Shown here: piece by piece, positions 1 to 60,185 of the stretch
How positions within the stretch are numbered: position 1 is the first letter of the stretch
Layout: each line of letters begins with the position of its first letter
Source: an uncultured Candidatus Saccharibacteria bacterium
Lineage (GTDB): Bacteria; Patescibacteriota; Saccharimonadia; Saccharimonadales; AWTP1-31
Length of the DNA: 64,000 nt
Reading direction: 5' to 3'
Assembly (NCBI GenBank): GCA_937903325.1
Contig: CALCZR010000058.1
Coordinates: 65,034 to 129,033 of the forward strand
Made by a program: the position numbers and the translations under genes
Notes under the pieces: generated by a model
What the model was told of the DNA's origin: nothing
The model's database searches: none
Seen by the model: the letters and a program-made list of their open reading frames with translations, nothing else

Positions 1-1105
<1,105 letters not shown>

Positions 1106-1531
1106 TTAAAATCTTCTTGTCGTATCATTAGCTCCGAACACTGCAGCTGGCGACGGAAAGCCAGCTCGATCCACAAATTCCTGTAACCCCATAGCATCAG
1201 CGCGATATAGGTCATCAAAAATCCCAAACCGGATGCCGTGACCCGCGGGCTGCAACCCATCCTCGCCGAACATTAATGGTGCTGTTGCCCACATAACATC
1301 ACGTGTAGGTGGATGTAAAAGTGCAGACTGAACCACGAACAACCCCGCAGACTCCGCTGCTTCTTCTATGCGGGCGTCACGCGGATTAACAGTATCTCCA
1401 AGGTCGGTAAAACTTAAAATAGATGTAATTCCTCGTTCCAACATAATTGGTCTAAAAATTTGTCCTATTCGAGTGATATCACCGTGATCAACATCATGCA
1501 ATACTACCAATGAATTTTGACTTACGCGCAT
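1106..1531 (-). CDS. hypothetical protein wedged between atpG and atpD
   Basis: 141-aa ORF. Its ATG overlaps the atpG stop (TAATG), and GGAGG lies about 10 nt upstream. Its stop is 9 nt before the atpD ATG. No family recognised with confidence. Confidence 0.5.
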   Translation of the reverse strand: MRVSQNSLVVLHDVDHGDITRIGQIFRPIMLERGITSILSFTDLGDTVNPRDARIEEAAESAGLFVVQSALLHPPTRDVMWATAPLMFGEDGLQPAGHGIRFGIFDDLYRADAMGLQEFVDRAGFPSPAAVFGANDTTRRF

Positions 1532-2397
1532 TATTTTATTGCCTCCGCTCCACCGGTTATTTCTGCTAATTCCTGAGTAATTGCCGCTTGTCGAGCCGTG
1601 TTAAAGGCCAGGGTAAGGTCATCAATAAGGTCGCTAGCGTTATCTGTTGCGTTCTTCATAGCCATCATACGCATAGACTGCTCACTAGCTGCTGATTCCA
1701 TAAATGCCTGGTTAAGCTGTGATTCGATTAAACGCTCCGTAACTTCTTCCAGTACCACCTTTGGAGATGGTTCAAAGACAGCATTCTCTAGATCTGGTTC
1801 TACCGGATCTTCTACATAAGCAGCAGGCAAGAGTCGCTCTACGGTAACTTCCTGGGCAATGCTTGATTTGTAATCAGTGTAGGTAACGTCTACAACATCT
1901 ACTTCGCCGGTTACAAACTTCTCAACAACAGTTGCTAGAATTGGACGAATGTCGTTAGCCGTTGGATGGTCGGGGAAGTCCTGGTAGGCTGCAACAACTT
2001 CTACGTGTTCGAAGCGGACGATAAAGCGTGCACCCTGCTTACCAATCACGATCGCCTGACTAGCGATGCCAGCTTCTTTGTCTTCGGTCAGTTCACGAGT
2101 CAGCTGCTTCAAGACATTACTGTTATATGCACCAGCTAAACCACGGTTACTGGTAACAATAATGTGCAGACGAGTCTTTACTGGTCGCTGCACATATAGT
2201 GGGTGCTTGCGTACGTCAGTCAGCTCACGAAGGCGGGCCAGGATCTGCCGAGCTAGGTTACGGTAATCACGGCTCTTTACAGCCAGCTCCTGCGCACGAC
2301 GCATCTTACTCGCACTCACCAGCTCCATAGCTTTGGTGATTTGCTTAGTGCTTTTAACACTAGTAATGCGTGACTTTAATTGTTGTCGACTAGCCAT
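1531..2397 (-). CDS. atpG: F1 ATP synthase subunit gamma
   Basis: Typical gamma termini: MASRQQLKSRITSVKSTKQITKAMELVSASKMRRAQ at the N-terminus and ARQAAITQELAEI at the C-terminus. I chose the ATG at 2397 rather than the upstream 2448. Confidence 0.9.
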   Translation of the reverse strand: MASRQQLKSRITSVKSTKQITKAMELVSASKMRRAQELAVKSRDYRNLARQILARLRELTDVRKHPLYVQRPVKTRLHIIVTSNRGLAGAYNSNVLKQLTRELTEDKEAGIASQAIVIGKQGARFIVRFEHVEVVAAYQDFPDHPTANDIRPILATVVEKFVTGEVDVVDVTYTDYKSSIAQEVTVERLLPAAYVEDPVEPDLENAVFEPSPKVVLEEVTERLIESQLNQAFMESAASEQSMRMMAMKNATDNASDLIDDLTLAFNTARQAAITQELAEITGGAEAIK

Positions 2398-2869
2398 GCT
2401 GACCCCCTGGGATTGGGGCTGTCGGAGCTGGTACTGGTTCTGCCGCAAAATGGAGGAGTGAAGCTACCTGGACCCCAGCTAATGCACTTCGTGCGTTTTC
2501 TGTTAGCTCACCCCCGGGATCACGCTCGGTTAACGCCATAGCTCTCGATACGTCAATGCCCAGCGCTTCAGCTATTAAAGCAACCTGCTGGGAGTCATGC
2601 TGCTCGACAAGCGCATCACGAACCTGGCGAATTCCGCCGTTAATTATCAATAGATCATCTGCATTCGGATCGCGCTCAGCGTTACCGAACAAACCCTTGC
2701 CAACCAATGGCTTGTGGCAAACATCGTCTATGGCTCCAACACTCACACCAAATCGCGCGGCTATTCTTGCCCTATCTGCGGCAACAGCCCTCTCAACGGC
2801 GCGGTGCGTAACATCCGAATGCTCGCGAGCGCGTATGAGATCTGGAGAATGACCGACCCGGCTGTTCAT
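2390..2869 (-). CDS. hypothetical protein wedged between atpA and atpG
   Basis: 159-aa ORF that starts 2 nt after the atpA stop, with AAGGA upstream. Its stop overlaps the atpG ATG by 8 nt (ATGGCTAG). It is Ala/Arg/Asp-rich. No family recognised. Confidence 0.5.
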   Translation of the reverse strand: MNSRVGHSPDLIRAREHSDVTHRAVERAVAADRARIAARFGVSVGAIDDVCHKPLVGKGLFGNAERDPNADDLLIINGGIRQVRDALVEQHDSQQVALIAEALGIDVSRAMALTERDPGGELTENARSALAGVQVASLLHFAAEPVPAPTAPIPGGQHG

Positions 2870-2871
2870 TG

Positions 2872-4401
2872 TTAGTCCTTCTGACCTTCGGCGATTGTCT
2901 TAGCAACCTTCAGGATAATCTCTTTGGTCTTGTCAGCTGGCTTGTCACCCTTGTTGAGTTCATCCATTTCTTTCTTGTACTGACTCTTTAGTTCCTGGAG
3001 CAGGCTTGCTTGTGCAGCCTTAATCTTAGCAACCGGGACATCGTCAAAGGCACCGTTAGTTGCAGCGTGGAGAGATGCAGTTTGTTCCCACACACCAAGT
3101 GGTGAGTACTGTGGCTGCTTAAGGAGTTCGGTCAAACGCTGACCACGTTCGATTTTCTGCTTGGTTTCTGCATCTAGATCCGACCCGAACTGTGCGAATG
3201 CAGCAAGCTCACGGAACTGCGCCAGGTCAAGCCGAAGACTACCAGCCACTGACTTAACAGCCTTAGTCTGTGCAGCACCACCCACACGAGAAACAGATAG
3301 ACCGACTGAAACAGCTGGTCGAATACCTTGGTTAAACAGGTTGGTTTCCATGAAGATCTGACCGTCGGTAATAGAAATCACGTTGGTTGGGATATAGGCA
3401 GAGATGTCTCCAGCCTGGGTCTCGATGATAGGTAGGGCAGTCAGGCTACCGCCACCCTTAGCGTCGCTCATTTTAGCAGCACGTTCGAGCAGACGAGAGT
3501 GCAAGTAGAAGACATCACCAGGGTAGGCTTCGCGACCCGGTGGACGTCGGAGAAGCAGTGACATTTGTCGATAGGCAACAGCGTGCTTACTAAGGTCATC
3601 GTAGGTGATCAGGGCGTGTTGACCGTTATCTCGGAAGTATTCGCCGATTGCTGCACCAGCATAGGGAGCCAGGTACTGCAGGGAAGCAGGGTCAGATGCA
3701 GATGTGGCAACCACAATAGTCTGGTCCATAACACCTTCACGTTTTAAGCGTTCAATAATACGAGCAACCTTGCTGAGCTTCTGCCCAACTGCAACGTAAA
3801 TGTTAACGATGCCAGACTTCTGCCGATACTGGTTAATCATGGTGTCGACAGCAATTGCAGTTTTACCCGTCTGACGGTCACCAATAATGAGCTCACGCTG
3901 GCCACGACCAATTGGCACCATAGCGTCAATTGCAATAAGACCAGTCATCATCGGTTCACCAACACTTTGTCGGTCAAGTACACCCGGAGCAACTTGCTCT
4001 ACAAGGCCCATTTGCGTGGACTTGATTGGACCCTTATCGTCGAGTGGACGACCAAGTGGATCAACCACACGGCCAATAAGCTCTGGACCAACCGGAATCT
4101 GTAGCACCTGACCAGATAGCTTAGCGCGCATACCAGCTTTAACATCTACGTCACCGCCCATCAGTACGGCACCGATTTCACCCTCTTGGAGGTTTAGAGC
4201 AAAAGCAGGGATGGTTACACCATCGCCCTCGATTTCGATCATTTCGTTGTAGCCGCAATTCTGGAGACCATAAATCCAAGCCACACCGTCACCGATGCGG
4301 GTAACGATACCAACGCTCTCAACTTCAGGGCTGGTCTTGAGCTCAGCAATTGCTTTCCGGATGTCGGCGCTTAAGTCCTTGATATTAATGTCTGTAGCCA
4401 T
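2872..4401 (-). CDS. atpA: F1 ATP synthase subunit alpha
   Basis: 509 aa with Walker A GDRQTGKT. Alpha-subunit signatures run through the whole ORF. Confidence 0.97.
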
Positions 4402-4415
4402 ATGTCTAATTCTCC

Positions 4416-4811
4416 TTAGGTAGTCTGACTCTTAAGTCGCTGTAATTGTCGGCGTACGGTCAAATCCAACTGGTGGTCAGCGGTAGTTAATCGCACCCCG
4501 CCAATTACATCGGGGTTAATAGTTTCTTGAATAATTACTTGCTTAGCTCCAGTTTGAGCCATAAAGATCTTCTGGATTTCTGCACTCTGCTCGTTTTGTA
4601 GGCTATACGCAGTCTCGGCTTGTACATATAGTTTGCCGTCTTGCTGTAGCAACTGCCGTTCGATGTCTCGCAAAATTGTACTCAGATCACCCATGCGACT
4701 CTCTTCAATTAAGTAGGCAGCTAGCGAACGGGTAATATCTTGCGTGCTTTTGCCGGCAGCTAGATCTTCTAGCAGAGCACGAGCGATGGTTGAGTTAGAC
4801 TCTTTAGCCAT
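4416..4811 (-). CDS. atpH: ATP synthase subunit delta (OSCP-like), short form
   Basis: Operon position between atpF and atpA. The C-terminal segment [26 protein letters not shown] is delta-like. At 131 aa it is shorter than the usual ~180 aa. Confidence 0.75.
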
Positions 4812-5353
4812 TACGCTCGTACCCTTGCTAGCGCTCGCTCAATGAGCGATGCATCTTTCTTGGCATCGACTTTCTCGTCGATAATAACTTCAGTTGCCTC
4901 AGAAACAAGTGCCAGCATCTCACCACGAAGTTCTTTTCGGGCGGTCTGCATTTCCCGCTCAATGCGAGCGTTAGCATCCTTGAGCATCTGATCAACTTTC
5001 TTAGCTGCATTTGCTTCGCCGTCCTTGATGATCTGACTCGCTTCAGCTTGGGCACCAGTTAGAATCTTATTAGCTTCCTCGCGGGCTTTATGCTGCATGC
5101 CTTTCAGCTCTTCATCAAACTTCTCCTTAGCAGATTGCATTTCAATACCGAGTGCCACACCTTTATCGATGGTCTTGCGACGCTTCTCTAGGGTGTCTAC
5201 GATACCGCGAAGAGCAAACTTTTTTAGGAGCAAGAATAGTAGCAGGAAAGTTCCGGCCTGAAGGACAATAGCCTTAGGATCAATACCAAGTACAGCAATA
5301 CCTTCCTTCTCGGCGGCTTCTGCTGCAAATAGTACTGTTACGGGATTAATCAT
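4811..5353 (-). CDS. atpF: Fo ATP synthase subunit b
   Basis: One N-terminal TM helix followed by a long charged coiled coil; operon position fits. Confidence 0.85.
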   Translation of the reverse strand: MINPVTVLFAAEAAEKEGIAVLGIDPKAIVLQAGTFLLLFLLLKKFALRGIVDTLEKRRKTIDKGVALGIEMQSAKEKFDEELKGMQHKAREEANKILTGAQAEASQIIKDGEANAAKKVDQMLKDANARIEREMQTARKELRGEMLALVSEATEVIIDEKVDAKKDASLIERALARVRA

Positions 5354-5423
5354 ATATTCTTTGTCTCTTATCTCTTACTAATAATGGGCCGGATGGTTGC
5401 CCACCCGGTCTCCACAGTTCAGC

Positions 5424-5690
5424 TTATTTTACGATGATGGCGCCTAGGAATGCTAGAAGCGCTGTAACTTCGATCATAGCTGCGATAATCACAACCTGAC
5501 CAGCGGCCTTACCTGCTTCTGGGTTACGGCCGAGAGCCTTCATATAAGCCTGGCCAACCATTCCGAGGCCTAGAGCAGCACCCAAAAAGGCGATACCGAG
5601 CATGAATGACTTAGCTGCAGTTGGATTCCAACCACCGCGTTGTGTGACTTCTGCTGCTTCTGCTGCAAATCTTGTTACTTGTGGAACCAT
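5424..5690 (-). CDS. atpE: Fo ATP synthase subunit c
   Basis: Two-helix hairpin with the GRNPE loop and the carboxylate in AAMIEVTALL. Carries an unusual ~25-aa N-terminal extension. Confidence 0.9.
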   Translation of the reverse strand: MVPQVTRFAAEAAEVTQRGGWNPTAAKSFMLGIAFLGAALGLGMVGQAYMKALGRNPEAGKAAGQVVIIAAMIEVTALLAFLGAIIVK

Positions 5691-5782
5691 ATTAGTTCTC
5701 CTTAGTTTGTTACCATAAGTGCCCTAAAATTTAGAACGGTCCCATGGGTATTAATATAAAAGTTTGGCCACTCGAAGCGGGC

Positions 5783-6634
5783 CTAGCTTACATCGCCCTC
5801 AAGCCTTCCCACAACCGGGTCGACTTCGTGAGCGGTGTGCTCGTCATCGTGGCCGTGAGCAATCGCAAGACCTAGGTATGTGGCGGCAAGCACCGTGAAT
5901 ACATAGGCCTGGATGCACGCAACCAGGATTTCGAACATCGCTATGGGCAAAATCGTAAACGACTGGAAGTCTTTGCCAATGTAGGCAAATACTGCAATCA
6001 AGATTTCACCGACTACGGTGTTCAAAAACAAACGAAGACTAAGACTAATCATACGGGTAAACTCACCGAATACTTCGAGTAATCCAATAAACGCGTTAAC
6101 CGGGTTCAGGGGCTTATCAGTAAAGTAGTGCTTAAGGTGACCGACAAAACCAGACTCACGAATAGAGAGGTATTGGACGGTAAGGATGGCAAAAACTGCC
6201 ATAGCGATGGTGCCGTTGAGATCAGCGGTAAAGGCACGAAATAGCGGGAAGGTGCCCTCGTGGGTAGTCACGTGAATCCCAGGACCAACCCACGGCATGA
6301 TACCCATAATGTTATTGAAGATAATAAACAAAAAGAACGTCCCAAAGATTGGTGCGTATTGTACTGCTTTCTTGCGTGAGCCAAGCGGCCCCTCAATAAG
6401 ACCAACCACAAATTCTACGAGAATCTCAACAATTTGTGTAAAGCCCTTAACTGCATTAAGCCGTAATTTCTTGCGAGCGGCCAGCCCAAGAGCAAGAAGT
6501 AACACGGCACAGATAGCACCGTAGATAGTGGAGTTCGTAATAGGCAAACCACCAATTTTGTAGATAGCTTCAGGCGCCAGCGCAATATGCGGGCCGTCTT
6601 CAGAAGCTACACGGGTTAGTAGGGCGCCTAACAT
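5783..6634 (-). CDS. atpB: Fo ATP synthase subunit a
   Basis: Polytopic membrane protein containing LSLRLFLN (the conserved Arg). It is the first gene of the operon. Confidence 0.9.
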   Translation of the reverse strand: MLGALLTRVASEDGPHIALAPEAIYKIGGLPITNSTIYGAICAVLLLALGLAARKKLRLNAVKGFTQIVEILVEFVVGLIEGPLGSRKKAVQYAPIFGTFFLFIIFNNIMGIMPWVGPGIHVTTHEGTFPLFRAFTADLNGTIAMAVFAILTVQYLSIRESGFVGHLKHYFTDKPLNPVNAFIGLLEVFGEFTRMISLSLRLFLNTVVGEILIAVFAYIGKDFQSFTILPIAMFEILVACIQAYVFTVLAATYLGLAIAHGHDDEHTAHEVDPVVGRLEGDVS

Positions 6635-6820
6635 ACTCCTCCGGTTGTTTTACACTCCCAGGAGTTCGTCGTCAGCCCACAATTGGCGATGGCGGCGATA
6701 GAGATACTCATCTTTCGGCAGTATATCAGGCTGACCTCATATATTCAATAAGGTATTCCATATGTTTGTCACAATTTCGGTGCTTTGCCTAGACCGGAGA
6801 CACGGGTGTATACTACAAGC

Positions 6821-7051
6821 ATGAGTATTACACTATATACCTCTCCAGCATGCGCTTACTGTCACATGGCACGTGAGTACCTAAAGAGCAAGAAACTCAA
6901 ATTCAAAGAGTACGACATCGCTGACAATCCTAAGGCCCTCGAGTGGGTACGCGACAACGTAGGACAGCTTGCTACACCAGTTCTAGATATTAATGGCACC
7001 GTGATCTTAGGCTTTGACCGACCTAAAATTGACCTCGCTTTACGTGATTAA
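6821..7051 (+). CDS. glutaredoxin-like protein (NrdH/Grx family)
   Basis: MSITLYTSPACAYCH contains a CxxC motif, followed by a thioredoxin-fold tail (TPVL..NG). The ATG at 6821 lies 6 nt after TATACT. Confidence 0.85.
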   Translation: MSITLYTSPACAYCHMAREYLKSKKLKFKEYDIADNPKALEWVRDNVGQLATPVLDINGTVILGFDRPKIDLALRD

Positions 7052-7124
7052 ACACCACATATAGGGTTTGTAGTTTACACAACGACACCATTTATGCTAT
7101 CCTCCTGACAGCGGAGGAACATCT

Positions 7125-7721
7125 ATGGCCGAACCAAGACCTTTGATTGTGGATATCGCCCCACACCTCACCGTGGTACCGACCGGTCCCGCGGAGTTAC
7201 TATTTGTTGATTTTGGTGGATACCGACCGTCTAGTCCTAACATGGCGGTCCTTGAGAATGAAATTTTTGATGCCGACAGTGCGGCCATTATGATGGCCAG
7301 TCTCGGTGCCGCTGGTCTTATCTTAAGCACAGAGACCGTACCGGGACTACGCAGAGAACTTAAGACACCCCAAGCGCGCAACGAAGCACGCAGGACGACG
7401 ATCGAAGCAGCCTTGGCACGGCAACGAGCTGCAAGTGCACTCATCAATAAAACTATCGGTGACTTTACCGAGAATTTCACAATCACCATAGATGCCGCCA
7501 CAGAGAAAGGCATGGCCCGACGGGTACTGGATCATAGCCAATACGATAGGCTATTAGCACGAACCGCCCGTGTGAGTGGCGCCACTCCAATAAAAGTAGT
7601 CACTGATCTCAAAAACGCTGCAAAACGCAAGGTTATTGCCGAAGAAGATCGACTCGAGGCAGAGAGAAGTATGCTCTTACTATACGACCGAGCTCTGCAA
7701 GACAGAGAACGGCACGCGTAG
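7125..7721 (+). CDS. hypothetical protein
   Basis: 198-aa ORF with GGAGGA 8 nt upstream of the ATG. Preferred over the antisense ORF 7097..7513. Confidence 0.5.
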   Translation: MAEPRPLIVDIAPHLTVVPTGPAELLFVDFGGYRPSSPNMAVLENEIFDADSAAIMMASLGAAGLILSTETVPGLRRELKTPQARNEARRTTIEAALARQRAASALINKTIGDFTENFTITIDAATEKGMARRVLDHSQYDRLLARTARVSGATPIKVVTDLKNAAKRKVIAEEDRLEAERSMLLLYDRALQDRERHA

Positions 7722-7735
7722 TACACTAGACGCAG

Positions 7736-8305
7736 ATGAGTTTCGAAGACTATAAGACAAAAGAAGCCGTTGTTATTGTCTACACCGGAGACAGCAAAGG
7801 TAAAACCAGTGCCAGCCTAGGTCTGTTAGTCCGTGCCCTCGGCAACCGTTGGAACGTAGCTTTTATACAGTTTATTAAGTATTGGGGAGTAGGGGAGCAC
7901 GTCTTTATTCGTGATATCCAATCTCTGTATAAAGACCAGTTGTACTTCTATAAAGGCGGCAAAGGATTTTACAAAGCTGGCGACCTCAGTCCACAGCACA
8001 TTAGCGAAGACCAGCACAAACAGGCAGCTCAAGAAACATACGACGAAGCTTACGGCAAAGCCACGAGTGGTAAGTATGACCTGGTCATTTGTGACGAGAT
8101 TAATAACGCCGCCAACGACGGACTAATCACCAAGGACCAGCTCAGGAAACTAATAGAAGACAAAGCCAAGAACACCAGTCTATGTCTAACAGGTCGAAAC
8201 TTCCCAGAAGACCTACTACCACTGGTAGATATCGCTACCAACATGACCAAGATAAAGCACCACTTTGATGAGAAGTTCCTGGCAAATCCAGGGATTGACT
8301 ATTAG
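7736..8305 (+). CDS. cobO: ATP:cob(I)alamin adenosyltransferase (CobA/CobO/BtuR type)
   Basis: P-loop-like YTGDSKGKTSASLG, plus IQFIK, ICDEIN, LTGRN and IKH motifs. Confidence 0.85.
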   Translation: MSFEDYKTKEAVVIVYTGDSKGKTSASLGLLVRALGNRWNVAFIQFIKYWGVGEHVFIRDIQSLYKDQLYFYKGGKGFYKAGDLSPQHISEDQHKQAAQETYDEAYGKATSGKYDLVICDEINNAANDGLITKDQLRKLIEDKAKNTSLCLTGRNFPEDLLPLVDIATNMTKIKHHFDEKFLANPGIDY

Positions 8306-9402
8306 ATACTACTACCACGCTTGCGATAGTATTCACTCGCAGTTGCTGGTGGTGCAGCTACCCGCCACGCAGTAACGTGGCCTTCATGCGTTTCGTATTG
8401 AAGGGGGGTTCTGTTGCCAAGAATCCACTCCAAGCGATGCAGTACAACAGGTCTGATATCTTCTACTCCGAGTAGAGTAGCGATATCTGAAGTTGTTAGG
8501 ACTTCACCTACTTCTCTGGATGCCAGAGCTGCACTAAGCTGCTCACCAAGTTCATAAATACCACCTTTTTTGTCCGAACCCGAGGCTAAGTAATCACGAC
8601 GAAAAAGATGTGGTAGCGTAGCACGCTTCTCGGGTGTGTGTAAGTAGTTCCGTAGAAGACCAAGACCAGCCTCTTGCTGTCCTGCAGGATCTTCTTGATA
8701 CGCGGTAATTAGGTCAACAACCTCTTGAAAGATCTCACGACCATCCTTAGTCATACGCCAGCTGTAAGGGACTGTGTTGCGATCACGCTTTCTCTCAAGC
8801 ATCCTTGCCTTGAGCCACACATTAAGCCGATCTGTGAGACCTCCCTTTGCCACTGGCCCCAAACGAGAATCATCTAGCATGCGTTCAATCGTTACGCTTC
8901 CTGCAAGTCCTCCCATGTAGCCTCCTAACGTCAGAAGCCTGTCCTGGGCACTAGGCTCCGCTTCCTCTGGGCCACCTTTTTGGTGCGTAGCGCCTAGTAG
9001 TCTACGCAAAGCAATATTCCGCCGAAAAGATAAGTCCAACAAGTGACCTCCCCATGAAGCTTGTCGGACGCCATCCTCAGTCAGGCTAACCGCTCGCTCT
9101 CCAAGCGATCCTGCTCCCTCGGAGTTTATTTGGTGACTTTCTTGAGGCAGACGCTCAATCATATTCCGAATGTACGCTGGGCGGAGAAATCGTGCAGCAT
9201 CAGGAATCAGCTTCCTGTACGCTTCTTGGGCTTGATCGAAAGTCAGGCCGTCAAAAGGCTCTTCCTGTGCCGCCCCAAGAACGCCCATCATAATGCTACG
9301 GCCTTCCGAATTGCCAACACCTAAGTCTTGAGATATTTGTGAACCAGTGACCTCTACAATAAAGGGGTGGTTTGCGTGCAAGTCTTTTATATCTAAAGCC
9401 AT
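8302..9402 (-). CDS. hypothetical protein
   Basis: 366-aa ORF convergent with cobO (4-nt overlap). No family recognised. Confidence 0.6.
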   Translation of the reverse strand: MALDIKDLHANHPFIVEVTGSQISQDLGVGNSEGRSIMMGVLGAAQEEPFDGLTFDQAQEAYRKLIPDAARFLRPAYIRNMIERLPQESHQINSEGAGSLGERAVSLTEDGVRQASWGGHLLDLSFRRNIALRRLLGATHQKGGPEEAEPSAQDRLLTLGGYMGGLAGSVTIERMLDDSRLGPVAKGGLTDRLNVWLKARMLERKRDRNTVPYSWRMTKDGREIFQEVVDLITAYQEDPAGQQEAGLGLLRNYLHTPEKRATLPHLFRRDYLASGSDKKGGIYELGEQLSAALASREVGEVLTTSDIATLLGVEDIRPVVLHRLEWILGNRTPLQYETHEGHVTAWRVAAPPATASEYYRKRGSSI

Positions 9403-9511
9403 AGTACGAATCTCGTTAATTCAGCCTAATACTGTATAACTTTTTAAGAATATTTGCAAGCACAGCAATCCATCGTTGTACATTTTTCCTACAAAAAGCT
9501 ACTCTAAATAC

Positions 9512-53817: not shown

Positions 53818-54858
53818 CTAAGCATTAACTGGTATTGCAACCGTAAAGGTCGCACCCTTGGCCTTAGCACTCTGCACGGATATGGAGCCACCATGACGCG
53901 TAACTATATCTTTAGCCAAGGCCAACCCTAACCCATGGCCACTCGACTTAAGAATTGTTGCTTGGGCACCTCGATAGAAACGTTCGAAGATCTTTTCCTG
54001 CTCAACTAGCGAGATACCGGGCCCTTTATCACTTACCGTCAGTAGTAAGTGATCGGTTACTCTCTTCAGCCCAACAGAAATGTCCGGTTTGGCACCACCA
54101 TATGTCACGGCGTTATCTACTAAGATGCCGAGTACTTGGGTATACAAGACAGGGTCAACATTTGCTGTCAGCTTATCTTCCACCGAAACGGCAATATCCT
54201 GTCCATGCCGTTTGGAGAGCTTGATTGTCTCATCTAGAACAAGCCTACTGACAGTAACTTTCTTGAGCTTAAGTGGAGCTTCTGCACGGGTCAGGCCGAG
54301 TAGCTGGTCACTTAACTGTCGGAGTCGTTCTACTTCCTCTAGGTTGCTCTTAAGGGCTTCTTTGGCTTCACCACTAGAAAGTTTTTTGTTACGCAGTGCA
54401 ACTTCAATTTCGGTCTGCATTACAGCCAGCGGAGTACGGAGTTCGTGACTGGCGTTGGCGGTGAACTTGGCCTGGGCTTCGTGAGCATCTTCTATGGGTT
54501 GCAGGGTATGACGGGCGAACCAGTAGCCGGCAAAGCCACCGATTAAGGTAATGGTGCTATCTATAATGACGAAGCTGATGAAAAGCTCGCGGCGATCTTC
54601 AGCCAGTTGTTTCTCACGCTGCTGCTCGATCTGTGGAATGAACTGACCCGACTGGAACGGATCGGGTAGGCGACGCACGATATCTGTTTGCAGTTCTGCA
54701 CCACGGCGCAGCCGTGCAGAAGCAACATTGTAGAGGGGGATGCTAAAGACAAAGCAGACAAGAACCAGGACAGCAACGTACCACGCAGTAAGCTTTACAA
54801 CCGCTGATTTAAACACGACTGGTCCTGAGACGGTAGCCAAAACCGCGGATCGTTTCAA
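53818..54858 (-). CDS. sensor histidine kinase
   Basis: Two TM segments, a HisKA H-box (ASHELRTPL) and HATPase N/G boxes (DNAVTYG, GHGLGLA). The track's TTG start overlaps the regulator gene by 50 nt; a GTG at 54816 is a plausible real start. Confidence 0.9.
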   Translation of the reverse strand: MKRSAVLATVSGPVVFKSAVVKLTAWYVAVLVLVCFVFSIPLYNVASARLRRGAELQTDIVRRLPDPFQSGQFIPQIEQQREKQLAEDRRELFISFVIIDSTITLIGGFAGYWFARHTLQPIEDAHEAQAKFTANASHELRTPLAVMQTEIEVALRNKKLSSGEAKEALKSNLEEVERLRQLSDQLLGLTRAEAPLKLKKVTVSRLVLDETIKLSKRHGQDIAVSVEDKLTANVDPVLYTQVLGILVDNAVTYGGAKPDISVGLKRVTDHLLLTVSDKGPGISLVEQEKIFERFYRGAQATILKSSGHGLGLALAKDIVTRHGGSISVQSAKAKGATFTVAIPVNA

Positions 54859-55489
54859 TCAATGAATCGCTTGAGGTTCCATCGATCTTCTTACGCAGAC
54901 TCCGGATAAACACCTCAACAGTATTCGGCAATACGTCTGAATCAAAATCCCAAACGTGTTCCAATATTTGGTCCTTACTAGATATCTGGTCAGTATGGTG
55001 GGCAAGGTACTCGAGTAGGGCATACTCTTTCTTGCTGAGCTTCACTGGCTTACCAGCCACCTGGACCTGTTTCAGTACCGTGTCGATACGTAAGCTACCG
55101 TGAGCGATAACTGGACCAACTGTTTGGCTAGGGCGGCGCTGCAGTGCCCGTAGGCGAGCCAGCAGTTCACTGTACTCAAAGGGCTTTACCAGGTAATCAT
55201 CGGCTCCGGCATCTAGACCCGTCACACGGTCAGTGGTTTCACCCCGGGCGGTCAGCATAAGGGTAGGGGTAGTATTTCCTTGCTTACGAAGCTCGCGGCA
55301 GATATCTAGCCCGTCTTTGTTATCTGGTAGCATACGGTCCAGGACAATGACGTCGTAGTTCTCAGTTTCAGCATAGGCCAAACCTTCGTCAGCAGTCTCC
55401 AGGTGATCTACGGCGTAGCCATCTTGTTCGAGTCCTGCCTTAATGGCGCGGCCTAGTTTCGTTTCGTCTTCTACAAGTAGTATTTTCAC
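54809..55489 (-). CDS. OmpR-family response regulator
   Basis: Receiver domain (ILLVEDE, VIVLDRMLP) plus a winged-helix output domain (IETIRGFGYRL). Confidence 0.95.
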   Translation of the reverse strand: MKILLVEDETKLGRAIKAGLEQDGYAVDHLETADEGLAYAETENYDVIVLDRMLPDNKDGLDICRELRKQGNTTPTLMLTARGETTDRVTGLDAGADDYLVKPFEYSELLARLRALQRRPSQTVGPVIAHGSLRIDTVLKQVQVAGKPVKLSKKEYALLEYLAHHTDQISSKDQILEHVWDFDSDVLPNTVEVFIRSLRKKIDGTSSDSLIETIRGFGYRLRTSRV

Positions 55490-55570
55490 TCTTGTATTGT
55501 ACTGCTTGTTGGCTGAAAAATTCCTGAGCTCAATAACGCTTCACCCGCAGAAGCAAGCAGAGCCTCAAAC

Positions 55571-55598
55571 GTGTGGTTCGAGTCCCTGCTGGCCCTCC
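55571..55598 (+). other. tRNA 3'-end-like fragment (T arm, acceptor strand, CCA) with no matching 5' half
   Basis: Reads TGTGG-TTCGAGT-CCCTG-CTGGCCC-T-CCA. I could not fold the upstream 50 nt into the acceptor, D or anticodon arms. Confidence 0.35.
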
Positions 55599-55640
55599 AA
55601 TCCCGGTTATGTTTAAACTCCTCAAGCGAGGAGTTTTTCT
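55589..55640 (+). repeat. cassette-boundary element copy A (core and right arm only)
   Basis: TGGCCCTCCAATCCCGGTTATGTTTAAACTCCTC-AAGC-GAGGAGTTTTTCTT. The left arm is absent. Confidence 0.8.
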
Positions 55641-55679
55641 TATGCTTGCACTTCTAAGATTTAATGACACAATAGCCAT

Positions 55680-56120
55680 ATGGCAAATCCAAGTATTGCA
55701 ATGATTGGTAGCTTCCACAGAGCACTTGAAACTATGCAAACAGCAATTGATACGTTCAATAAACATGCTATCCAGGTAGTTAACCCTCTTAGTACCGTGC
55801 CATTTGAACCGAGTGATGAGTTTGTGCGCTTTGAAACTGATGAACCTGGATTGTCGGATGCCGAAATTCAGGTCCAGGCACTTCAAAGGATCCTAGGTGC
55901 TTCGGCAGTTTACGTCGTATGTCCAGAAGGCTATGTTGGCAAGACTACCTCTTATGAATGGGGTTTTATTGAAGAACGCCAAAGCCCTGCATACTTTAGT
56001 GAAGAGCCAGAAGTTTGGTTTATGAAACGACATGCCCAGGACCGTATTGTAACCCCGCAAGAACTTGCAGTAATGGTCTGCGATGGATCAATATCACCTA
56101 TCCACAAGTTTGAAGGCTAG
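55680..56120 (+). CDS. cassette 1: hypothetical protein, possibly nucleoside 2-deoxyribosyltransferase-like
   Basis: 146 aa. IAMIGSF...VVNP...VGKTTSYEWGF gives a weak by-eye resemblance. TTG start at 55680; an ATG at 55701 is the alternative. Confidence 0.5.
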   Translation: MANPSIAMIGSFHRALETMQTAIDTFNKHAIQVVNPLSTVPFEPSDEFVRFETDEPGLSDAEIQVQALQRILGASAVYVVCPEGYVGKTTSYEWGFIEERQSPAYFSEEPEVWFMKRHAQDRIVTPQELAVMVCDGSISPIHKFEG

Positions 56121-56190
56121 TTGCGATTAGCTCCACAATGGCCCTCCAATCCCGGTTATGTTTAAACTCCTCGTCTTGAGGAGTTTTTGT
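56118..56190 (+). repeat. cassette-boundary element copy B (full)
   Basis: TAGTTGCGAT-TAGCTC-CACAATGGCC-CTCCAATCCCGGTTATGTTTAAACTCCTC-GTCT-TGAGGAGTTTTTG. It includes the stop codon of cassette 1. Confidence 0.85.
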
Positions 56191-56206
56191 TTGGTATACT
56201 GCCTTT

Positions 56207-56554
56207 ATGAATCAGGCAGGCGTACCCTTATATCAATACATTTTTAATCTACTCGATTTTGGCGATGAGTTGCTAAAGCAACTGGCCGAGGCTGATGAAT
56301 ATAACCGTAATAACTACATACTAATCTTAATATACATTGAAGATATATTGGATAAAGGTGGCCGCGCGATAGTGTCTAAGAGTGCGCGAGAGCATCTGGG
56401 TACTTATGAAGAAGGTGAAAAGATGATGATAGAAGCAACAAAAAGATTGGATTTGCTACGGGGCGAACTAAAAAGATTAGTTGCTAGTTATGATCTCGAT
56501 GAGACCATTAAGTTTAGGAGTGCTGCCATCTTCCAGACTTGGCAAAGGCGCTAG
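56207..56554 (+). CDS. cassette 2: hypothetical helical protein
   Basis: 115 aa. An extended -10 (TGGTATACT) lies 6 nt before the ATG, and there is no Shine-Dalgarno site. Confidence 0.55.
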   Translation: MNQAGVPLYQYIFNLLDFGDELLKQLAEADEYNRNNYILILIYIEDILDKGGRAIVSKSAREHLGTYEEGEKMMIEATKRLDLLRGELKRLVASYDLDETIKFRSAAIFQTWQRR

Positions 56555-56582
56555 TAGCTAGCTGTAGCTAACGTTGATAATG

Positions 56583-56657
56583 TAGTTCCAATAGAGTCTA
56601 CGATGGCCCTCCAATCCAGTTATGTTTAAAGTCCTCAGAAACGGGGAGTTTTTCTTA
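56583..56657 (+). repeat. cassette-boundary element copy C (full)
   Basis: TAGTTCCAAT-AGAGTC-TACGATGGCC-CTCCAATCCAGTTATGTTTAAAGTCCTC-AGAAAC-GGGGAGTTTTTCTTATGCTTGCA. Confidence 0.85.
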
Positions 56658-56694
56658 TGCTTGCATTGTGACAGGGGTATTGTATATTCATTGG

Positions 56695-57657
56695 ATGGCC
56701 TCAGTAGAAGCTCCTGTACGGATTGCCACCCAAGGTAATCAATATTCATATCATGCCCATGCTGCACGGATGGCTGTTGGTGCAGCTATCGAGGCAGTCG
56801 ATTTTAGCAAGTTCGATGACGTAGTAGCGGCAAGTCGACGAAAAGATCCCGGACTTGGCGTAATAGCGATTAACACTGCCGCCGGGGCGGTAGAGGCTTC
56901 TGCGAAGGCTATGTTTGGCAAGCGAACTTCAGCTTTACCTTGGATTGTAGCAAGGGAAGATGTACCAATCCAGCTTGCACTTATTAGTTCACATGAACAA
57001 ACAATAGCAGAGCTACAACGCGGCGGTGTCAGGTGTGTCGCACAGGCAGCAGCTGCAAGGCAAAGTTACGACCTGCTTAAAGAGCAGTTTCCGCGTATGC
57101 GTATCCGAGATAATGGTCCCGAGTCCACTCGTTGCATTCGTACTGTCGTTGAGCGTGGCGATCGTAACTTTCTTACCATTGGCCCTGCTCATGCAGCCGA
57201 GCCAATGGGTGGCTTTATCGTCGAAGGACAAGAACGGGTTAGCCCGGAGGGTAATGTGACAAGTTTTTACGTGCTCCAGAGGGATCCAAGGGAACAAATA
57301 CTACCGGCTGATGCAGATAAATCAGAGAACCTAACCGTACTTGCCATAGCATACCCCGAGGGAGAAGGTGAACTGGCTAAGTGTTTAGAAGTTGCCGAGA
57401 CCATAGGACTTGAAGCAGTGCGATACATGCCCTATAACCCTAGAGATTCAACGAGGCATAATCCTAATCTCAAGCGTGATGGGGGGATTCTGGAGGTGCG
57501 TGGAGGTTATTTTGACGAACATATTACCGAGTTTTGTGCGCAAGTTAACCAGCTTCAGGCGATTGACGGCGCGGATGGTCCTTTCAACGGCAAGCGCCTT
57601 GGGCAATATCAATGGTATCCTGGTGATGTTATTGACCTTCAAGCCCTTGCGACATAA
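56695..57657 (+). CDS. cassette 3: divergent prephenate-dehydratase-like protein (PDT plus ACT-like)
   Basis: VRIATQGNQYSYHAHAA...GVIAINTAAGAVEAS...NVTSFYVL...LAIAYPEGEGELAKCLEV resembles PheA by eye. The ATG at 56695 lies 6 nt after TATATT. Confidence 0.5.
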   Translation: MASVEAPVRIATQGNQYSYHAHAARMAVGAAIEAVDFSKFDDVVAASRRKDPGLGVIAINTAAGAVEASAKAMFGKRTSALPWIVAREDVPIQLALISSHEQTIAELQRGGVRCVAQAAAARQSYDLLKEQFPRMRIRDNGPESTRCIRTVVERGDRNFLTIGPAHAAEPMGGFIVEGQERVSPEGNVTSFYVLQRDPREQILPADADKSENLTVLAIAYPEGEGELAKCLEVAETIGLEAVRYMPYNPRDSTRHNPNLKRDGGILEVRGGYFDEHITEFCAQVNQLQAIDGADGPFNGKRLGQYQWYPGDVIDLQALAT

Positions 57658-57661
57658 AAAT

Positions 57662-57730
57662 TAGTTGCAATAAATTCCACGATGGCCTCCAATCCCAGTT
57701 ATATTCAAAAGCTTCTTCGGAAGTCTTTTC
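57662..57730 (+). repeat. cassette-boundary element copy D (full, diverged hairpin)
   Basis: TAGTTGCAAT-AAATTC-CACGATGGCC-TCCAATCCCAGTTATATTCAAAAGCTTC-TTCG-GAAGTCTTTTC. Confidence 0.8.
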
Positions 57731-57748
57731 ATTAGCTATACTTAGTGC

Positions 57749-58573
57749 ATGTCAGATCGTAATCCAAGAATATTCATTTTGTCTGGATATCGCATGACTT
57801 CTCAAATAGTTTGCGAAGCTGTAACTACTGCGCTACCAGCAGATATCGGGTTATACAGAATTCCGTATTCGCAGTGGTTTAGCTGGGTAGCATATAGGAT
57901 TAAGCGTTTTGGTGCGATGACAATGATCGGGCATATCGGACTGTCACTATACCTAAGTTTTCGGACAGTGCTACTTCGCTTTAATAGACACGCTTGGAGT
58001 AAAACAAGTCATTACACACTTCCTGACCGAGCTGTGAGTCTGAAATCCGAACGAGCACTCCTGGACAAGTTTAAGAGTGCAGATGCTGTGCTGCTGATGG
58101 AACCGTTCCGCTTACCGAGATCAGCCTACTCTAATAAATCGACAACATACTTAGAAGTTGTTTGGGGCGGAACGCCAGACTATATGGGGGATAGCGCTGG
58201 CTGGTGGCAGAAAGTAAATGAGGATGGAACGAGTACGAGCGTGAGTATAATTCAAAGGGCTGGTGAAGCGTCGGATCTAACGTTACTGGCAGCTTGGGAG
58301 GTCCCGCTTGAGCCCAACTATACCATTGGTAGGGTACGTCTTGAACAGGCAAAGGTGCTCATGAAGCAGCTTCCAATATTCCTAAAACAATATACGGTGA
58401 ATAAACCAATGCAGAACAAGTCGGTAGTAAGACGACAAAGTGGTTATAGTTACGTCTCGCCTACACTGGGAGAATACCTTAGATACAATCGGGCAAAAGT
58501 TGTGCCAGAGTCAGTGATTAATCGACGCAGAAGTCGTGTTGACTATAAAGTGAGGGTACATGAAGTTAAATAG
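57749..58573 (+). CDS. cassette 4, gene a: hypothetical protein
   Basis: 274 aa. TATACT lies 6 nt before the ATG. There is a faint formyltransferase-like pattern (RIFILSG..TPDYMG), which I do not trust. Confidence 0.55.
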   Translation: MSDRNPRIFILSGYRMTSQIVCEAVTTALPADIGLYRIPYSQWFSWVAYRIKRFGAMTMIGHIGLSLYLSFRTVLLRFNRHAWSKTSHYTLPDRAVSLKSERALLDKFKSADAVLLMEPFRLPRSAYSNKSTTYLEVVWGGTPDYMGDSAGWWQKVNEDGTSTSVSIIQRAGEASDLTLLAAWEVPLEPNYTIGRVRLEQAKVLMKQLPIFLKQYTVNKPMQNKSVVRRQSGYSYVSPTLGEYLRYNRAKVVPESVINRRRSRVDYKVRVHEVK

Positions 58574-59213
58574 CCGCTATCAGGTTGCACTATTCGCTGT
58601 TGCTGTGTTTATAGTTTTATTTTTGCACGATAGTAATCTCTATCCTCAGTTATCAAATGCACATCGCTTTGTTTTAAGCTCGCTACGGTTCACTCTACTG
58701 GCTGGCCCAGTATTGCTTTCCGTTATGCTTAAGCACACAAAACTGTCTAGCGTTAGAGCTGTCATTTCGGTCGCATTAGCATTGTTCATCCCATATACGT
58801 TGTACAGTGTTACTGAAATCAGGCATATCACAGAGTTGTGTCCCGTACACTCTGTAACATACTTTACCGATAGCTGCAGTCTTTCCAGTTGGAAACTCTT
58901 GCCGCCAATCGTCTATGCCATGATTGGCATAGCAGTATATGGTGTGTGTTTACAACAGCTGAATGTTCGGAGAATGAGGTGGTGGCTGGGGCTGTTTGTA
59001 CTGTATATCGCTCTTGCTTCACAGTTTGCACTACAAAGCAGATTGAACATTTGGAATATTGCCACCCAGCCGGCTGATGTACTAAATGAGCTAATCAAGG
59101 CTGCTACAGCGAAAGAGTTTTGGCTGAACAGCGGGGCTTACTTTCTATTCTTTATGGCTATAACGGCTGTAATTACTCATTCAGTTAATAACATGGCCTT
59201 TAAACAGAAGTGA
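58560..59213 (+). CDS. cassette 4, gene b: polytopic membrane protein
   Basis: 217 aa with about 6 TM helices. Overlaps the upstream gene by 14 nt. Confidence 0.55.
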   Translation: MKLNSRYQVALFAVAVFIVLFLHDSNLYPQLSNAHRFVLSSLRFTLLAGPVLLSVMLKHTKLSSVRAVISVALALFIPYTLYSVTEIRHITELCPVHSVTYFTDSCSLSSWKLLPPIVYAMIGIAVYGVCLQQLNVRRMRWWLGLFVLYIALASQFALQSRLNIWNIATQPADVLNELIKAATAKEFWLNSGAYFLFFMAITAVITHSVNNMAFKQK

Positions 59214-59219
59214 AGAGTT

Positions 59220-59252
59220 TAGTTGCGATAACATCTACGATGGCCGCTCCAA
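59220..59252 (+). repeat. cassette-boundary element copy E (left arm and core only)
   Basis: TAGTTGCGAT-AACATC-TACGATGGCC-GCTCCAA, after which the sequence diverges (AACTAAC...). No right arm or hairpin. Confidence 0.8.
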
Positions 59253-59258
59253 AACTAA

Positions 59259-60185
59259 CTAAAACCACTTGTTCCGCTTGAAGAAGGCAGCAGCAAATCC
59301 AATAAAGCCACCGGTTATGCTAAGGATAATCCAAAAGGCATTAGGGTTGTGTGCTGCTGGCAGGGCAATATTCATGCTATAGATACCGGTAATCAGGGTA
59401 AAGATACCCATAAGTATCGTGATGCTGGTCATGAGCTTGAAGACCTTGTTTAGGCTATTGGCCATAATAGTCGCGTAGGCTTCACGAATGTTACGCAGCG
59501 TAGTCAAACGTGACTGCGCAAGCAGCGTTAGCTCCTGATTCCCCAACGAGAGGTCTTCGATTAGATCTTTGTCTTCTTCATAGAGACGCATAAAGCGTCC
59601 GTTGAGCAATGAATTAAGCACCGCTGCCATTGGCTCAAGTACAAGTAAGAAATCGTTAAGATCTTCTTCGATGTCGATAAAACCAATGAAGTCCCTGTTG
59701 GTGATCTGGTCTTTATCCAGGTGAGACCGCGTTTGCAGAATTCGGCGGCTTGCCGTGTTGATACGCCGCTTGTAGCCTCCGTTAATTGCCTGCAGGATCT
59801 CGAGGATCAGCTGAGCACGCTTGCTGGTAATAATACCGAACGGGCCCTTGGTGATTTGCTCCAGGTGTGTAAAGGTTTGTTCACAGATCGTGATAGTAAC
59901 ACCTTTGGTATAGACAATAAGTAGTGGGGCAGTGGTTATCTTTTCGGCTTCAGGCAGGCAGAAACGGGTAAATATATATACTTGTTCACCATCCCGTTCG
60001 ATACGGGGCGACTCGTTAGGGTCAATGCCGTCCTTAAGCAGGTCGAGGTCTAGCTTGTGTTCAACACTGAGGGCGGTAAGGTCGTCTTCTGTCGGAGACT
60101 CTAAGTGAATCCAAGCACCATCTGTTACTTGGGTAAGCTCTGCCAGCTCCGGGGACTTTGTCGAGCTATGGAATATTCTTGTCAT
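59259..60185 (-). CDS. corA: CorA-family divalent cation transporter (YSMN variant of the GMN motif)
   Basis: Two C-terminal TM helices around GIYSMNI, with a cytoplasmic CorA-like N-terminal domain. Confidence 0.8.
   Translation of the reverse strand: MTRIFHSSTKSPELAELTQVTDGAWIHLESPTEDDLTALSVEHKLDLDLLKDGIDPNESPRIERDGEQVYIFTRFCLPEAEKITTAPLLIVYTKGVTITICEQTFTHLEQITKGPFGIITSKRAQLILEILQAINGGYKRRINTASRRILQTRSHLDKDQITNRDFIGFIDIEEDLNDFLLVLEPMAAVLNSLLNGRFMRLYEEDKDLIEDLSLGNQELTLLAQSRLTTLRNIREAYATIMANSLNKVFKLMTSITILMGIFTLITGIYSMNIALPAAHNPNAFWIILSITGGFIGFAAAFFKRNKWF

Follow-up and report, generated by a model that had tools for sequence, protein, structure and literature searches.

An array of short cassettes

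We analyzed a 64-kb window of a contig from an uncultured Candidatus Saccharibacteria bacterium (GCA_937903325.1, CALCZR010000058.1), in which a sequence-only reading had placed, at 55571–59252, an array of short gene cassettes separated by copies of a repeated element. The core of this element, TGGCC(0–3)TCCAA, matches five times in the window, always on the + strand between 55590 and 59252 and always inside the array (copies A–E start at 55590, 56139, 56604, 57683, and 59241); chance predicts 0.53 matches, and none of 100 shuffles reached five. Pattern scans of the window place a left arm, TAGTTGCGAT-N4-TCYACRATGGCC, at 56118, 56583, 57662, and 59220 (0.00 expected) and a right arm, TCCCGGTTATGTTTAAA, at 55601, 56150, 56614, and 57693 (0.13 expected), and a separate repeat search of the window recovered the same repeat families. 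Copy A has no left arm and copy E no right arm; both the five-copy core and these terminal half-sites had been claimed in the sequence-only reading and are borne out here. A terminator scan finds a hairpin followed by a T-run after copies A (55615–55636), B (56164–56186), and C (56632–56647), and folding reveals a hairpin after copy D (57707–57729) that differs in sequence with its pairing kept, as had also been stated. The cores of D (TGGCC-TCCA) and E (TGGCCGCTCCA) deviate from TGGCCCTCCA, the form that is near-invariant in related loci. The copies are not scattered in the manner of repetitive extragenic palindromes, miniature inverted-repeat transposable elements or generic terminators: the five in the window lie within 3.7 kb, and all copies in the window and in the related loci sit in arrays, which speaks against the generic dispersed repeat that the same reading had named as its alternative.

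The core is the 3′ end of tRNA-Lys

Related loci were collected in two scans. The first, of one genome per species with the core and right arm, returned 37 loci, about a dozen of them in Saccharibacteria bins; the remaining matches lie inside unrelated genes and are without arms. The second, of metagenomes with the left arm and core, gave 112 further loci, for a compared set of ~125 related contigs whose named genome bins are all Saccharibacteria. ARAGORN predicts a tRNA-Lys gene beside nearly every Saccharibacteria match of the first scan (anticodon CTT; TTT in locus L016), and in L019, L024, and L026 the sequence ...GGTTCGAGTCCC..C-TGGCCC-T-CCA terminates an intact tRNA-Lys(CTT). In about 50 loci an intact tRNA-Lys (CTT or TTT) ending in TGGCCCTCCA heads the array. 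The core is the 3′ end of tRNA-Lys, comprising the 3′ strand of the acceptor stem, the discriminator and CCA, and what had been described as a right arm with a hairpin is the kind of trailer and terminator found behind tRNA-Lys. Because the core at the end of both tRNA-Lys isoacceptors is identical, an array can be headed by either of them. Extra complete tRNA-Lys genes also occur inside the arrays of L071 (1924–2000 and 2383–2459 in oriented coordinates), L116, L120, and L137, the last of which has TTT and CTT copies plus a third tRNA-Lys copy.

At the head of the window array, a 28-nt fragment of the tRNA-Lys 3′ end (55572–55599, + strand) consists of the T-loop, the 3′ strand of the T-stem, the 3′ strand of the acceptor stem, the discriminator T and CCA, and matches the tRNA ends of L019, L024, and L026. 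It ends in core copy A (TGGCCCTCCA, 55590–55599), which places it at an attL-like position, and is the sole window match (E = 4e-4) of an nhmmer profile built from tRNA ends and the T3 unit described below. The left flank of copy A, treated as anonymous sequence in the sequence-only reading, is thereby reassigned. ARAGORN and Rfam find no complete cloverleaf or tmRNA fold at 55490–55600. We also considered copy A as a tmRNA or an unusual tRNA and rejected both, ARAGORN and Rfam being negative at gathering and E-value thresholds and just 100 nt lying upstream. The left chromosomal flank, outside the element, encodes a histidine kinase and a response regulator (53818–55489, − strand; Pfam). Homologs of this pair (36% and 50% identity) lie in L012 directly upstream of an intact tRNA-Lys with an array, which indicates that the window locus is this same site on the chromosome after loss of the tRNA body.

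Trailers are more alike within one array than between arrays, both in the window and in the L026 array. When the window trailers at 55600–55650, 56149–56200, and 56614–56665 are compared, those of copies A and B show ~90% identity across 50 nt, and those of A and C have GAGTTTTTCTTATGCTTGCA in common. This likeness suggests concerted evolution or gene conversion inside the array.

Self-contained cassettes downstream of tRNA-Lys

In the ~125 contigs, arrays of 1–10 short cassettes lie directly downstream of tRNA-Lys(CTT/TTT), and this platform recurs widely among the sampled Saccharibacteria-type contigs. Its attachment site comprises the last 9–10 nt of the tRNA-Lys gene, (T)GGCCCTCCA. Among 361 core junctions, 56 are at a tRNA-Lys end, about 280 follow a left arm, and about 25 follow a T3 unit. 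The complete cassettes, 225 in number, have a median length of 670 bp, with 79% of their coding bases on the tRNA strand, and are ordered, 5′ to 3′, as trailer (often a terminator), T-run, usually an extended −10 box, one to three genes, left arm, and core. Array surroundings are housekeeping in character (folD, a Mur ligase gene, murI, murB, dnaJ, rimK).

The left arm spans 21–26 nt, A-N4-TAGTTGCRATAGC-N-TCYACGRT, and ends in the core; over 212 distinct junctions its consensus is A-N4-tAGTTGCrATAgc-N-TCtACgrT, and the GGCCCTCCA behind it is invariant. The search pattern itself accounts for part of this conservation, but not for that of the A at −26 or of copies which the pattern missed. This A, 5 nt upstream of TAGTTGC and outside the search pattern, is present in 193 of the 212 junctions; being conserved although it was not searched for, it shows that the left arm reaches at least to −26. 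ORFs mostly stop 11–50 nt before the core; in 22 of 182 cases the stop codon is the TAG within the left arm. The sequence 3′ of the core is far more variable: the motif YTATRNT begins at +6/+7 in 102 of 306 junctions, and a hairpin with a T-run follows the core in at least 130 of the 306 (at least 40%).

In 63 of 101 cassettes a −10-like hexamer ends 6–7 nt before the ATG (consensus TTTTTTTTG-N-TATAAT-N6-ATG), and a Shine-Dalgarno-like motif occurs in 6 of the 101. The spacing of the −10 box implies leaderless mRNAs. The proposal that each unit carries its own leaderless-type promoter and its own terminator is thus supported, as a prediction from promoter and terminator motifs, across the family.

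The cargo is diverse. Its 352 ORFs fall into 249 clusters, 202 of them singletons, and 148 representatives yield 108 Pfam families, which include GNAT acetyltransferases, NUDIX hydrolases, nucleotide kinases, nucleotidyltransferases, HAD and HIT enzymes, sugar and amino-acid enzymes, and ParE, YoeB, and PIN toxins with Phd and RHH antitoxins. Some toxin–antitoxin pairs are carried complete (Phd/YefM with YoeB or ParE; PIN with an RHH antitoxin), and one representative is a heliorhodopsin (PF18761, E = 1e-95).

As transcripts, all these genes would end in a left arm, a tRNA-like CCA, a trailer and a terminator, and the tRNA itself is followed by a trailer and terminator of this kind. The repeats could on these grounds be read as an RNA-level module, a shared 3′ untranslated region (UTR) imitating the 3′ end and trailer of tRNA-Lys to allow processing or termination, which spread by duplication without being mobile. 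The left arm has no consistent fold, however, the motif is absent from the other 3′ UTRs of the window, and units of homology between loci run from core to core rather than from promoter to terminator, the trailer going with the downstream gene. We consider this explanation the most improbable of those weighed here.

Modules are exchanged at the core

The breakpoints of homology were mapped by all-against-all blastn of the loci (at least 85% identity over at least 150 nt). Internal right ends of homology fall at the core end, +0/+1, in 79 of about 170 cases, and left ends cluster at the core start, −1/0. Where two loci share the upstream cassette and differ in the downstream one, the first mismatch lies +1, +2, or +3 past the core in 28 of 31 non-tRNA junction pairs; where they share the downstream cassette and differ in the upstream one, it lies at −1 to −3 in 12 of 15. 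Module exchange is confined to the 9–10 bp core, (T)GGCCCTCCA, and breakpoints at this position mean that a trailer moves together with the gene downstream of it, and a left arm together with the gene upstream of it.

Cassettes also change position and neighbors. A 2.5-kb cassette encoding an epimerase and a TMEM175 protein is first after the tRNA in L070 and fifth in L110, and has at least six different right neighbors. In the pairs L056/L070, L082/L138, and L142/L150, a cassette that one contig has behind the tRNA stands behind another cassette in the second, and 6 of the 16 nucleotide-level cassette families present in at least two loci have more than one left neighbor. Together with the tRNA-Lys end and the breakpoints at the core, these changing neighbors support the sequence-only reading that the attL-like, internal, and attR-like copies arose by serial site-specific integration at one site. 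The cassette-level comparison that it had called for gave a divided answer, with swaps at the core among related contigs and none among near-identical strain contigs of this population. The sole variant among the latter is a clean 390-bp deletion in ERZ650304 NODE_797 (L049) relative to window positions 58197–58586; it is not at a core and removes the 3′ part of one gene and the start of the next (the 274-aa and 217-aa genes of cassette 4, below).

A dedicated enzyme may not be needed for such exchange. Saccharibacteria are described as naturally competent (PMC10187176), and DNA taken up by transformation could enter by homologous or homology-facilitated illegitimate recombination at conserved junctions, in which case the arrays would be ordinary recombination hot spots. 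The junctions (left arm, core and trailer) offer 30–70 nt of similarity, none of the arrays has a linked recombinase gene, and the near-identical trailers within arrays (window copies A and B; L026) look like gene conversion. Against this, the switch points are limited on both sides to the 9–10 nt core, far below the usual requirement of RecA-dependent recombination, and the explanation leaves unaccounted for why every cassette carries the same left arm and tRNA end and why all arrays start at tRNA-Lys. Transformation with recombination is the best rival to a dedicated system, and in our judgment an unlikely one.

The four cassettes of the window

Cassette 1 (55600–56148, + strand) begins with the trailer ATCCCGGTTATGTTTAAA and the hairpin at 55615–55636, followed by a −10-like CACAAT (55668–55673), an ORF of 146 aa (55680–56120), the left arm (56118–56138), and core B (56139–56148); the TAG of the left arm is the stop codon of the ORF. 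The 146-aa protein has no Pfam match, which leaves its earlier label as nucleoside-deoxyribosyltransferase-like unsupported. A homolog with 56% identity (P0008) in L172 forms a cassette that has a left arm and a neighbor unlike the window's: it is followed by TAGTTGCGATAGTGTCCCCGCT-GGCCCTCCA and then by a DUF1801 cassette; a 52% homolog in L171 is not a cassette. In cassette 2 (56149–56613, +), the trailer and terminator (56164–56186) precede an extended −10 box, TGGTATACT (TATACT at 56195–56200), an ORF of 115 aa (56207–56554) whose protein belongs to no Pfam family, the left arm (56583–56603), and core C (56604–56613).

Cassette 3 (56614–57691, +) has a trailer and terminator (56632–56647), a −35-like TTGCAT, and a −10 TATATT (56683–56688) ahead of a prephenate-dehydratase-like (PDT-like) gene, which most likely starts at the ATG at 56695 (56695–57657, 320 aa) and not at the GTG at 56668; the left arm (57662–57682) and core D (57683–57691; TGGCCTCCA, one C short) follow. 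The protein matches PF00800 (E = 2e-14). Its 67% homolog, P0002 in GCA_040384045.1 (L163), is itself a cassette, bounded on one side by a left arm whose core is degenerate (TTGCTCCTCCA) and on the other by a left-arm variant with GGCCCTCCA. The promoter region is homologous to that of the window (ATGCTTGCATT...TATTGTATATTCA), whereas the neighbors, a 169-aa protein and a SET-domain protein, differ from the window's. Homologs with 47–53% identity are ordinary chromosomal genes without cores. Both window cassettes tested, the PDT-like and the 146-aa one, recur as cassettes with other neighbors. The L163 array (4992–9470) has no tRNA-Lys within 17 kb and partly degenerate cores (TTGCTCCTCCA); its distal end is a left arm without a core, and it resembles the decayed state of the window array.

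Cassette 4 (57692–59251, +) carries two genes. Behind its trailer, the hairpin at 57707–57729 and a −10 TATACT (57737–57742) lie an ORF of 274 aa (57749–58573) and, overlapping it, one for a 217-aa DUF1361 membrane protein (58560–59213), followed by the left arm (59220–59240) and core E (59241–59251; TGGCCGCTCCA, one extra G), the attR-like end of the array. A convergent corA gene (59259–60185, − strand; PF01544) abuts this end with its 3′ end. The hexamers of cassettes 1–4 (CACAAT, TATACT, TATATT, TATACT) each end 6 nt before the ATG; a generic sigma-70 scan flagged none of these sites in the window. Relatives of the five cassette proteins of the window are absent from the 125 loci and were found solely in a large protein database.

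A structured unit ending in the tRNA-Lys sequence

A unit that we call T3 accompanies the gene cassettes in a number of arrays. It is ~150–190 nt long, contains no ORF, and starts right after a terminator. At least ten loci have T3 directly behind tRNA-Lys, and others have it at internal positions; it is found in tandem in L038 (2446–2821, two units), alternates with gene cassettes in L067 (three copies), and occurs also in L016, L025, L027, L035, L058, L117, L120, L139, and L149. Its last 22–28 nt are identical to the tRNA-Lys end of the same host, a sequence to which the 5′ end of T3 is complementary. In an alignment of 13 copies, 20 of 36 consensus pairs have compensatory changes, and the motifs GGGTGAGAA, GCAAGG, and AACTTGTT are conserved in single-stranded positions. 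No Rfam family matches T3. The window holds just its last 28 nt (55572–55599).

T3 could be RNA cargo or part of the recombination machinery. With a 3′ end equal to the tRNA-Lys end and a complementary 5′ end, it recalls the bridge RNAs of IS110 elements. We think it quite unlikely that the arrays represent a phylum-wide, new type of gene capture in Saccharibacteria, in which a tRNA end docks self-expressed micro-cassettes through an enzyme outside the classical integrase families, possibly guided by T3 RNA.

Search for a recombinase and for mobile carriers

The sequence-only reading had noted that no recombinase lies in the window, which searches for tyrosine-recombinase catalytic motifs (regular expressions) and tblastn with XerD, gamma-delta resolvase, and lambda Int (query sequences entered by hand) confirm; the same searches were negative in the ~125 loci. 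Pfam, PHROGs, and NCBIfam assign no recombinase among the large cassette ORFs, which encode transporters, enzymes, an RNase II-like protein and others.

Two larger inserts occupy the tRNA site. In L097, 7.7 kb (oriented coordinates 98–7841) with two FtsK/SpoIIIE-like genes lie between the tRNA and a left arm with core, beside which a 562-aa orphan protein is encoded; in L106, a 6.6-kb insert at the same site (oriented 853–7472) carries Replic_Relax, a sortase and an IS1595 transposase. Several orphan proteins encoded in such larger inserts (562, 501, and 346 aa) have no match in Pfam, PHROGs, or NCBIfam, and the two largest (562 and 501 aa) retrieve nothing from the PDB with phmmer. The recombinase could be hiding among these orphans.

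A blastn search of phage and plasmid collections gave no match to the site, nor did the left-arm pattern in IMG/VR. Candidate attP sites were rejected as chance matches: the right-arm pattern hit once, in a giant-virus bin, and the tRNA-end pattern five times, in high-GC sequence without a tRNA or an integrase.

Relation to integrons and tRNA-targeting elements

Integrons, in the form of sedentary chromosomal integrons and of clusters of attC sites lacking integrases (CALINs), consist of short, mostly one-gene, co-oriented cassettes with the site at the cassette 3′ end and a short, invariant crossover core. Their cargo is hypervariable and mostly of unknown function, with acetyltransferases, NUDIX proteins, and toxin–antitoxin pairs among it, and stop codons often fall in or next to the site. 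Like them, the Saccharibacteria arrays are co-oriented, have short cassettes, and cross over at a conserved core. Unlike them, they have a tRNA gene end in place of attI as the primary site; a 30-nt recombination site, composed of the left arm and the core (GGCCCTCCA), that lacks an imperfect palindrome of the attC type and gives no consistent hairpin in folds; cassettes with their own promoter, often preceded by a terminator, which do not depend on a Pc promoter; and no IntI-type integrase beside the array or in the sampled flanks (the 64-kb window and ~125 loci). The sole hairpin at the junction is the terminator, on the other side of the crossover from the left arm.

Integration at a tRNA 3′ end, with direct repeats of partial tRNA between units, is shared with tandem tRNA-targeting islands such as the tycheposons, as are the displacement of older units away from the tRNA by newer ones and a hypervariable island in a streamlined genome. 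The tycheposons of Prochlorococcus measure several kb, encode their own tyrosine recombinase, and have att identities of about 40 nt (10.1101/2020.12.28.424599). The units described here differ in their median of 670 bp, the lack of an integrase, a tRNA identity of 9–10 nt, and a conserved left arm that is not tRNA.

Partial-tRNA repeats left behind by serial integration at a tRNA are nevertheless well documented (10.1101/2020.12.28.424599), and this precedent raises the possibility that the arrays are eroded remains of integrase-carrying, tRNA-targeting islands or prophages, tycheposon-like, from which the integrases and most cargo have been deleted. The larger elements at the same site in L097 (7.7 kb) and L106 would fit such a history, as would the 22–28 nt of tRNA identity kept by copy A and the T3 units, which resembles classical att sites. 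Erosion does not readily give 225 units of tight, regular design (terminator, promoter, gene, left arm), and no integrase pseudogene was found in the window or the loci. The left arm is not tRNA-derived (7 of 24 positions match the T-arm, by eye), the common cassette type has a tRNA identity of 9–10 nt only, and intact cassettes travel as modules. We regard this history as very unlikely; both it and the 3′-UTR explanation fit the boundaries and the regular design poorly. We also considered, and dropped, the idea that the left arm derives from a tRNA T-arm or D-arm by decay, the similarity being at chance level by eye.

Integrase-less cis-mobilizable elements (CIMEs), pdif modules, and integrative mobile elements exploiting Xer (IMEX) are small, site-bounded modules that are moved by a recombinase acting in trans and accumulate in tandem. 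CIMEs are leftovers of integrative and conjugative elements, and pdif modules, found on plasmids, are bounded by 28-bp XerC/XerD sites in alternating orientation. The arrays share with these the tandem, site-bounded gene modules and, if our interpretation is right, a recombinase supplied in trans; unlike pdif sites, theirs are direct repeats of a tRNA end. A dif-like pairing of the left arm (AGTTGCGATAA) with the trailer (TTATGTTTAAA) was rejected: the resemblance, judged by eye, is weak, the spacing is 26 nt as against 6, and the right-hand motif occurs in no more than 102 of 306 junctions, so that two thirds are without it.

The platform lacks defining features of both integrons and tRNA-targeting islands. 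A full-text literature search found no description of this system, though one may exist in journals that the search does not cover. There is a small chance that the system is categorically new, should the enzyme or the T3 RNA prove unconventional.

Interpretation and implications

Taken together, the observations make it probable that the window locus consists of four mobile micro-cassettes in a tRNA-Lys-anchored, integron-like platform served by a trans-acting recombinase. A recombinase encoded elsewhere in the genome would recognize the left arm and core as an attC-like site and would also recognize the tRNA end, or the core of another cassette, as an attI-like site; strand exchange within the 9–10 bp core would then allow insertion, excision and reshuffling of circular cassettes. 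Both this recombinase and a circular intermediate are inferred. A crossover window of 9–10 bp, and the same left arm and tRNA end on unrelated genes, are better explained by a dedicated enzyme than by transformation.

Several points weigh against such a platform. Neither the window nor ~650 kb of related loci contains a recombinase of any recognizable family; the core is not flanked by obvious dyad symmetry of the tyrosine-recombinase type; neither circular cassettes (contigs with terminal direct repeats) nor empty-site junctions were found; and the array is the same, without cassette variation, across near-identical strain contigs of this population. The loci were gathered with the left-arm pattern, which inflates the conservation of the left arm, and natural competence could give some module exchange without a dedicated enzyme (PMC10187176). 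The window array itself appears to be fixed, or decaying and inactive, judging from the 28-nt tRNA fragment at its head, two mutated cores out of five, and the lack of cassette variation among strains.

If the interpretation is correct, efforts at discovery have a well-defined target in the missing recombinase, and the left arm and its core (30 nt), combined with the compact promoter, could serve as a landing pad or expression cassette for bacteria that are hard to manipulate. In Saccharibacteria and other members of the candidate phyla radiation (CPR), the genomes are tiny and highly syntenic, with few recognizable mobile elements, and how they acquire accessory genes is an open question. The tRNA-Lys cassette platform would be a major route of gene flux in these bacteria, carrying more than 100 protein families, and would mean that the integron principle arose independently a second time, here with another docking site and with units that provide for their own expression (terminator plus leaderless promoter).

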